Shown here piece after piece: positions 8,807-9,850 of a DNA stretch of 14,412 nt. Made by a program: the position numbers and the translations under genes. The notes under the pieces are model-generated. The model was not told the origin of the DNA and did not search any database. It saw nothing but the letters and a program-made list of their open reading frames with translations. The DNA is from a virus (Duplodnaviria; Heunggongvirae; Uroviricota; Caudoviricetes). Position 1 is the first letter of the stretch, and each line of letters starts with the position of its first letter. The stretch lies in the IMG/VR virus record IMGVR_UViG_2690315808_000002; one strand, written 5' to 3'.

Positions 8807-9436
8807 ATGCATCGTATAGACACGAAAACCGCGCAGAAGGATAAGTTCGGCGCGGGTAAGAACGGTTTTACCCGTGGTAACCCCCAGACCGGCACGCCTG
8901 CCACCGATCTGGATGATGACTACTTTGACATGTTGCAGGAGGAACTTTGCAGCGTGGTGGAGGCATCCGGTGCCAGCCTGGAGAAGGGGCGGCACGACCA
9001 GTTACTTACCGCACTTCGCGCGCTGCTGTTAAGCCGCAAGAATCCGTTTGGCGATATCAAATCGGATGGCACTGTGCAAACGGCTCTCGAAAACCTTGGT
9101 TTGGGAGAAGGAGCAAAACTCAATGCAGCAACGGCTACATTAGGACGCACCGGTTTCATAGCTATACCGGTTATGATTGGTGGTATTGAGCAATCAGTAA
9201 TCATTCAGTGGGGGTGGAATGCCGCAAAAGCATCTGCCTCTGGGGGGGATGGAAATACAGTTGTATTCCCGGTTGCGTTTAATAATGCCTGTGTTGCCGT
9301 TGTTGCAAATTATGACAATGTCAGCGCACCTATCAATGCAGTGGCAACGGGGGATATACAACCACTTCGTTTTTATTACGGTGCGCAGCTCAAACGGGTA
9401 GTTATTACTATAACTGGATTGCTATTGGGTATTAAG
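8807..9436 (+). CDS. stfP: Side tail fibre: constant N-terminal part (to about codon 97) plus the variable C-terminal cassette in its current orientation
   Basis: First 210 codons of the continuous ORF 8807..9850; the crossover site lies at codons 93-101 (ENLGLGEG). There is no stop codon before the Tfa-like part (see finding). Confidence 0.7.
9084..9109. repeat. Left crossover site of the invertible segment (hix/gix-like 12-2-12 site)
   Basis: CTCTCGAAAACC-TT-GGTTTGGGAGAA; inverted repeat of the site at 10910-10935; right half-site identical to the reverse complement of the partner left half-site. Confidence 0.75.
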
Positions 9437-9850
9437 ATGAAAATATACTGTTGCTTAAATACCGTTGGTTTTTTTATGGATGGCTGTGGCGTCATTCCGC
9501 CAGATTCTAAAGAAATAACGGCAGAACACTGGCAGTCATTATTAAAATCTCAAGCTGAAGGAGGCGTGATCGATTTTTCTGTTTTTCCTCCTTCTATTAA
9601 AGAGGTTATCCGTACTCATGATGATGAAGTCGCAGATGCGAACTTTCAAAAGCAGATGCTTATCTCTGATGCAACTGATTTTATCAATAGCAGACAGTGG
9701 CAGGGTAAGGCTGCATTGGGAAGACTTAAAGAAGATGAGCTGAAACAATATAATTTGTGGCTGGATTATCTGGAAGCACTGGAACTGGTTGATACATCCA
9801 GTGCGCCAGATATTGAATGGCCTACGCCTCCGGCAGTTCAGGCCAGATGA
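9437..9850 (+). CDS. tfaP: Tail fibre assembly protein (Tfa), 137 aa
   Basis: ATG at 9437; C-terminus (WLDYLEALELVDTSSAPDIEWP) parallels the C-terminus of the convergent Tfa on the minus strand (LDYIDAVTATDTSTAPDVIWP). Confidence 0.7.
   Translation: MKIYCCLNTVGFFMDGCGVIPPDSKEITAEHWQSLLKSQAEGGVIDFSVFPPSIKEVIRTHDDEVADANFQKQMLISDATDFINSRQWQGKAALGRLKEDELKQYNLWLDYLEALELVDTSSAPDIEWPTPPAVQAR

Follow-up and report, generated by a model that had tools for sequence, protein, structure and literature searches.

A 347-codon stfP–tfaP open frame in prophage e14 almost certainly reflects a one-base frameshift in a G run

The P/Pin segment and its relatives

The invertible cassettes of the Din group, which include the G segment of Mu (Gin), the C segment of P1 (Cin) and the P segment of e14 (Pin), consist of a constant 5' part of a fibre gene and alternative pairs, each made up of a variable fibre sequence and an assembly gene. 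In e14 of E. coli K-12, these are represented by stfP (ycfK) and tfaP (ymfS), and both the gene order and the crossover repeats of K-12 are the same in the DNA described here. Fibres and spikes are also known in which a C-terminal, intramolecular chaperone of the Peptidase_S74 type is covalently part of the protein, e.g., the K1F endosialidase and pb1 of T5. A study from 2025 reported that PinQ, PinR and PinE invert a 1,797-bp P segment and that the chimeric genes stfP2 and stfE2 arise in the inverted state (PMC12529663). StfE2 is reported to comprise 125 amino acids, of which residues 47–125 form a gp53-like domain, to block the adsorption of phage T2 and to protect K-12 from this phage after P-segment inversion (PMC12529663). 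The same work reports toxicity of StfE2 and a fitness cost of the inversion (PMC12529663).

The window, that is, the whole stretch of 14,412 nucleotides that was analysed, is the defective prophage e14 of E. coli K-12 together with its right-hand chromosomal flank, from lit to ycgX. When the whole window was compared by megablast to 5,426 complete E. coli genomes, K-12 strains (MG1655, C600, J53, BW25113 and others) matched over the full length, with 14,412 window bases opposite 14,413 genome bases in each of these matches. The left part of the annotated K-12 order comprises lit, intE, xisE and ymfH to ymfL, followed by truncated pseudogenes for the terminase, portal and baseplate-J proteins. 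The right part comprises ymfQ, ycfK (stfP), tfaP, tfaE, a gene annotated as 'phage tail protein' (stfE), pinE, mcrA, the icd remnant, iraM and ycgX.

The segment in the window is the classical P/Pin system of e14 (Table 1). Its crossover arms form an inverted repeat of 21 nt that is complementary at 20 of 21 positions (95%), with 1796 nt between the arms, and this is the best inverted repeat in the region. Its core, TTGGTTTGGGAGAAGG, is identical to that published for the P-segment crossover (PMC12529663). The repeat bounds the variable part of stfP plus tfaP on one strand and tfaE plus stfE on the other, while pinE lies immediately outside. Thus, the features of a Din-type system are present: an adjacent serine recombinase, inverted repeats of which one is located inside the fibre gene and, among sequenced K-12 genomes, both orientations of the segment, P(+) and P(-). 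The window has the reference orientation. At the centre of the invertible segment, tfaP (+) and tfaE (-) converge so that their 3' ends overlap by 29 nt (9822–9850). As in the rest of the Din group, a serine recombinase sits beside a 1.8-kb segment bounded by inverted repeats and containing two opposed pairs of variable fibre and Tfa genes. Relative to that group nothing is new in the architecture; the finding is a point lesion in one cassette.

Table 1. Positions of the stfP–tfaP frame and of the P-segment features in the window
Feature	Coordinates	Strand	Remarks
Open frame of 347 codons	8807..9850	+	Frameshifted stfP/ycfK running into tfaP; stop TGA at 9848–9850
Native StfP codons 1–182	8807..9352	+	Residues 1–100 constant; variable cassette from about residue 101
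Left crossover site of the Pin-invertible P segment	9091..9111		Inside stfP; encodes ENLGLGEG
G5 homopolymer	9349..9353	+	G6 at 9349–9354 in reference K-12; 1-nt deletion
28 out-of-frame codons	9353..9436	+	DIQPLRFYYGAQLKRVVITITGLLLGIK, replacing native GYTTTSFLLRCAAQTGSYYYNWIAIGY and its stop
Native stfP stop, TAA	9433..9435	+	Physically intact; out of frame
tfaP, tail-fibre assembly protein	9437..9850	+	137 codons; identical to K-12 TfaP; Caudo_TAP domain
tfaE, alternative tail-fibre assembly gene	9822..10424	-	Caudo_TAP
stfE, alternative variable fibre cassette	10424..10960	-	Collar domain; promoterless in this orientation
Right crossover site of the P segment	10908..10928		
pinE, serine recombinase	10990..11544	+	Resolvase (174 bits) and HTH_7; inverts 9091–10928

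The stfP frame and the missing G

In the initial annotation, positions 8807–9850 (+) were described as one uninterrupted frame of 347 codons, in which an AAG codon at 9434–9436 directly precedes the ATG of tfaP at 9437–9439, and the reference e14 was taken to have separate genes of 209 and 137 codons. All of this is borne out: the frame is in the list of open reading frames and translates without a stop, the AAG-ATG succession is seen in the raw sequence, and the K-12 records of W3110 and MG1655 agree on the two gene sizes. In K-12 reference numbering, ycfK/stfP occupies 8807..9436 (209 codons plus TAA) and tfaP occupies 9438..9851 (137 codons plus TGA). The junction between them reads TAA-G-ATG, which places the stfP stop 1 nt ahead of the tfaP start codon.

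When the window is compared directly to K-12, the two share a prefix of 9,353 and a suffix of 5,064 bases. The sole difference in 14.4 kb is one G, absent from the G6 run in stfP/ycfK, and from 9354 to the end the two sequences are identical base for base. In contrast to K-12, the window therefore has G5 at 9349–9353, and its stfP is frameshifted from codon 183 into tfaP. The first residue to differ from StfP is number 183, residues 183–210 are wholly different and residues 211–347 are TfaP exactly. In other words, the last 27 native fibre codons, which end in ...WIAIGY and a stop, give way to 28 unrelated residues.

Loss of one G shifts the stfP frame at codon 183, and the shifted frame is that of tfaP, which is free of stops from the G run to the tfaP start codon and which is open from position 9201 in the reference. 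As the tfaP frame is already open upstream and across the G run, one slip is sufficient to join the two genes. The native TAA is then passed in the wrong frame and, in the absence of any stop in the shifted frame, translation proceeds beyond the tfaP ATG and ends only at the stop of tfaP, after 347 codons. The frame is thus almost certainly an stfP frameshift caused by a missing G in e14 and not a functional fibre–chaperone fusion. No evidence contradicts the frameshift mechanism.

What is lost from the fibre is evident from its domain content. In K-12 StfP, the Gp53-like_C domain (Pfam PF21882) spans residues 131–209, matches profile positions 6–84 of 84 with 58.7 bits and extends to the C-terminus. 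In the window product, the match covers only residues 131–177 (profile positions 6–47 of 84) at 43.2 bits; although this score is above the cut-off, the match is neither full length nor does it reach the C-terminus, and the shortening is due to the frameshift. The window product was also aligned with K-12 StfP and five relatives that have other variable cassettes. Here, the first 100 residues hardly vary as far as ENLGLG, the stretch that the crossover site encodes, and the variable parts diverge beyond that point. All six relatives end in (W/F/Y/V)(I/L/V/F)A(I/V)G(Y/W/G), read in the G6 frame, whereas the window product reads ...GLLLGIK before Tfa. The closest relative (P0067) shares TTTxFLLRC...GSY..W.A.GY with K-12 StfP, and the window tail shares none of this. 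The conserved end of the relatives and the Gp53-like_C match of K-12 StfP show that the G6 frame is the conserved one. The window allele destroys the second half of the receptor-binding tip domain. Domain truncation and genomic context together argue for a loss of fibre function, and the lesion would be of the loss-of-function kind that NCBI's pipeline labels as 'frameshifted'.

The C-terminal part of the product is an ordinary Tfa. Residues 269–342 match profile positions 59–130 of 131 of Caudo_TAP (Pfam PF02413) with 68.4 bits against a cut-off of 22.1, which places this part in the family. Proteins of this kind are normally separate polypeptides encoded just downstream of the fibre gene, and that is not what the window frame encodes, as there is no in-frame stop before the ATG at 9437. 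Instead of the clean fibre–Tfa fusion that had been envisaged, the product consists of fibre residues 1–182, the 28 out-of-frame residues and then Tfa, and the conserved fibre C-terminus is gone.

Resemblance to the Peptidase_S74-type fibres is superficial and is limited to the notion that a fibre and its folding helper share a polypeptide. In the window, a Caudo_TAP protein is the helper, its attachment through out-of-frame sequence is accidental, and the fibre C-terminus is destroyed. A reading as an intramolecular chaperone of this type was considered and set aside, as a Pfam profile search found no Peptidase_S74 domain in the window product. Among the best 120 of 6502 homologues, the only two-domain fibre–Tfa proteins are products of the same G5 allele, and the 28-residue linker peptide has no homologues outside that allele in the same set. 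A search of public gene and protein collections yielded no entry for the exact 347-amino acid product.

Origin of the G5 tract

The cassette's 68-nt stretch is carried by 283 complete E. coli genomes. In 281 of these the run is G6, which keeps the TAA of stfP in frame, and in the remaining two, CV601gfp (CP043213) and 07-4299 (CP027462), it is G5. In both G5 genomes, neighbouring genes are flagged as 'frameshifted' by PGAP. Over 5 kb, CV601gfp differs from K-12 by four single-base homopolymer deletions (in runs of G6, T7, T4 and C5) and by no substitutions, with one of its homopolymer indels in tfaP. An independent assembly of CV601 has G6. The G5 of CV601gfp is probably an assembly error, because the independent assembly has G6 and three more homopolymer undercalls lie nearby. 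Other public assemblies are of similar quality: GCA_053109935.1 has G5 together with 8 indels in 6.8 kb, and in ERR14686383 and SRR26994283 the G5 is accompanied by shortening of a nearby G7 run. This second run, located at 9242–9248 in the variable cassette of stfP, is unchanged in the window; several public assemblies prone to error (L009, L010 and L011) give it as G6 or G8.

A different class of G5 loci was reached through the protein cluster around P0001. It consists of Logan assemblies of at least five runs (SRR13446696, SRR13446792, SRR13446867, SRR13446874 and SRR13446875), in which G5 is combined with an inverted P segment. Over the adjoining 10,053 bases, SRR13446867 matches K-12 at 100%; within the segment, its only differences are the G and the one base in which the two crossover arms are unlike. 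The notion that G5 is always an error was dropped in view of this assembly, where 10 kb of perfect K-12 sequence stand beside G5. The pattern in the SRR13446xxx runs may point to a genuine allele in one laboratory lineage.

Thus, for the same tract, both slippage-like and undercall G5 are seen in public data, and the window has to be placed with one or the other. It is akin to the clean SRR13446xxx class, since it has no other difference from K-12. On balance, replication slippage in a laboratory K-12 lineage is the somewhat more probable origin of the missing G. The alternative, at rather less than an even chance but still a serious contender, is that the missing G is non-biological: an undercall or consensus error in the source assembly, from an organism in which the run is G6 and both genes are normal. 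Undercalls of this tract occur in assemblies full of homopolymer indels, namely CV601gfp, GCA_053109935.1, ERR14686383 and SRR26994283, and the G6 of the independent CV601 assembly is in keeping with such an error. Moreover, no complete RefSeq genome that is free of nearby frameshifts carries G5. An undercall is harder to reconcile with the window itself, which, unlike the error-prone assemblies, is free of further indels and substitutions over 14.4 kb and resembles the SRR13446xxx runs, where G5 occurs in at least five runs beside 10 kb of perfect K-12 sequence.

The products of the various G5 loci can be compared to that of the window. The pseudogenes of CV601gfp and 07-4299 and the SRR13446xxx open reading frame (P0121) all have the G5 allele and encode the peptide DIQPLRFYYGAQLKRVVITITGLLLGIK followed by TfaP, as does the window. 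The SRR13446xxx loci and GCA_053109935.1 match best to a reference in which the P segment was inverted in silico. As a result of this inversion, their reading frame starts in the pinE-proximal flank and comprises 263 amino acids, unlike that of the window. A similar 263-amino acid frame is found in 07-4299, where the cassette likewise has a recombinase as its neighbour and lacks the constant N-terminal part. This isolate is not a K-12 strain, and in its genome (NZ_CP027462.1) the stfP variable cassette and tfaP (97% identical) are located near the recombinase. The cassette region (L004, 1–5068) adjoins genes for a P2-type tail sheath and tube and contains several 'frameshifted' genes. In 07-4299, the cassette thus belongs to an apparently complete myophage tail module, as judged from these neighbours.

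Could the fusion be functional or regulated? Here, the G tract would serve as a phase-variable or frameshift-prone switch, which provides either a covalent chaperone or an on/off control of StfP and StfE2 in addition to Pin inversion. Several observations lean this way: the tfaP frame in the reference is open upstream across the G run so that one slip is enough, G5 is present in more than one data set, and StfE2 toxicity together with the cost of inversion (PMC12529663) could favour inactivating slips. Against this, G6 is short for a contingency tract and is what 281 of the 283 complete genomes contain. A contingency tract or a programmed frameshift site would recur in independent lineages and have a conserved downstream frame; G5 was found in two of 283 genomes, both with nearby frameshifts. 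The linker, being out of frame and having no homologues beyond the G5 allele, takes the place of the conserved fibre end and of half of Gp53-like_C, and the best 120 of 6502 homologues include no related natural two-domain protein. Finally, e14 has no intact terminase, portal or baseplate J gene, so no virion or tail is built. A functional switch is therefore very improbable.

The remaining explanation, a substitution of the stop codon (TAG or TAA to AAG at 9434–9436) that yields a clean in-frame StfP–TfaP fusion, fits the arithmetic of the reference sizes (209/137) and stop coordinates, but its probability is practically nil, as the window is identical to K-12 from 9354 onwards, including TATTAAGATG, the only difference is the missing G at 9349–9353 and residues 183–210 of the product are entirely unlike StfP. 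Alignment to the reference e14 was examined for a difference at 9433–9436 and none is there; the difference lies in the G run. The stop codon has not mutated, as TATTAAGATG, around 9430–9439, is the same in the window and in K-12. The predicted position of the stop, 9434–9436, holds in reference numbering, where TAA occupies these bases, while in the window the same TAA is at 9433–9435 in another frame. Similarly, the proposed single-base loss of a stop was correct in that a one-base difference joins the two frames; the lesion, however, is a lost G about 80 nt upstream and not a substitution. It had also been reasoned that, if the reference too had AAG here, the annotation would be merely arbitrary. 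The reference does, literally, have these bases, but the conclusion does not follow because there they are not a codon of stfP.

Consequences for TfaP, StfE2 and annotation

The frameshift, taken as the preferred reading, would also affect the supply of free TfaP. Pairing to the anti-Shine–Dalgarno sequence is weak for tfaP (-3.7 kcal/mol, at 9417–9439) relative to stfP (-6.1) and pinE (-9.4). Given this weak site and an stfP stop separated from the tfaP ATG by a single nucleotide, translation of tfaP would seem normally to rely on coupling to stfP. Ribosomes that read the shifted frame of the window would not terminate at the stfP stop, and coupling by termination and reinitiation would be lost. 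To make free TfaP, ribosomes would have to initiate internally at 9437 without such help, which is possible. Output of free TfaP is probably reduced in the window allele, because the TAA-G-ATG arrangement is no longer used and the ribosome-binding site of tfaP is weak.

The same lesion bears on StfE2. By arithmetic, StfE2 is composed of 13 flank-encoded residues followed by StfP residues 98–209, and the published limits of its gp53-like domain fit this composition exactly. After Pin inversion, G5 would replace StfE2 residues 99–125 and fuse the rest of the protein to TfaP. The product predicted in this way is the 263-amino acid read-through frame, P0121, of the SRR13446xxx assemblies. Strains with G5 would be expected to lose StfE2 protection against T2. 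If G5 is real, it is thus a predicted knock-out of an anti-phage effector; strains that carry it may lack protection against T2, and those who use the lineage in phage work would want to know. It can further be imagined that G5 is a real slip selected for loss of function, which relieves the toxicity and cost of StfE2 at the expense of defence and so forms a second on/off layer beside inversion, but this is very improbable.

The main relevance of the locus is for annotation. A gene caller would report a 'tail fibre–Tfa fusion' of 347 amino acids that is really a frameshifted stfP, and the region should instead be annotated as a pseudogene, stfP with a frameshift, followed by tfaP. What the window shows here is an ordinary frameshift in a homopolymer, and the locus itself is well known. 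Reading frames of misleading length occur elsewhere in e14. In reference genomes with G6, the tfaP frame is open for 79 codons upstream of the tfaP ATG (9201–9436) and contains an ATG at 9219. Gene callers therefore often emit, as an artefact, a 'long TfaP' of 210 amino acids that overlaps stfP (P0028, in a cluster of 166 member sequences). A further fusion frame of e14 that is accidental is the 455-amino acid open reading frame at 5476–6843, in which a helix-turn-helix fragment is joined to a fragment of the terminase large subunit; it is present in all K-12 records and is annotated in RefSeq as two partial pseudogenes.
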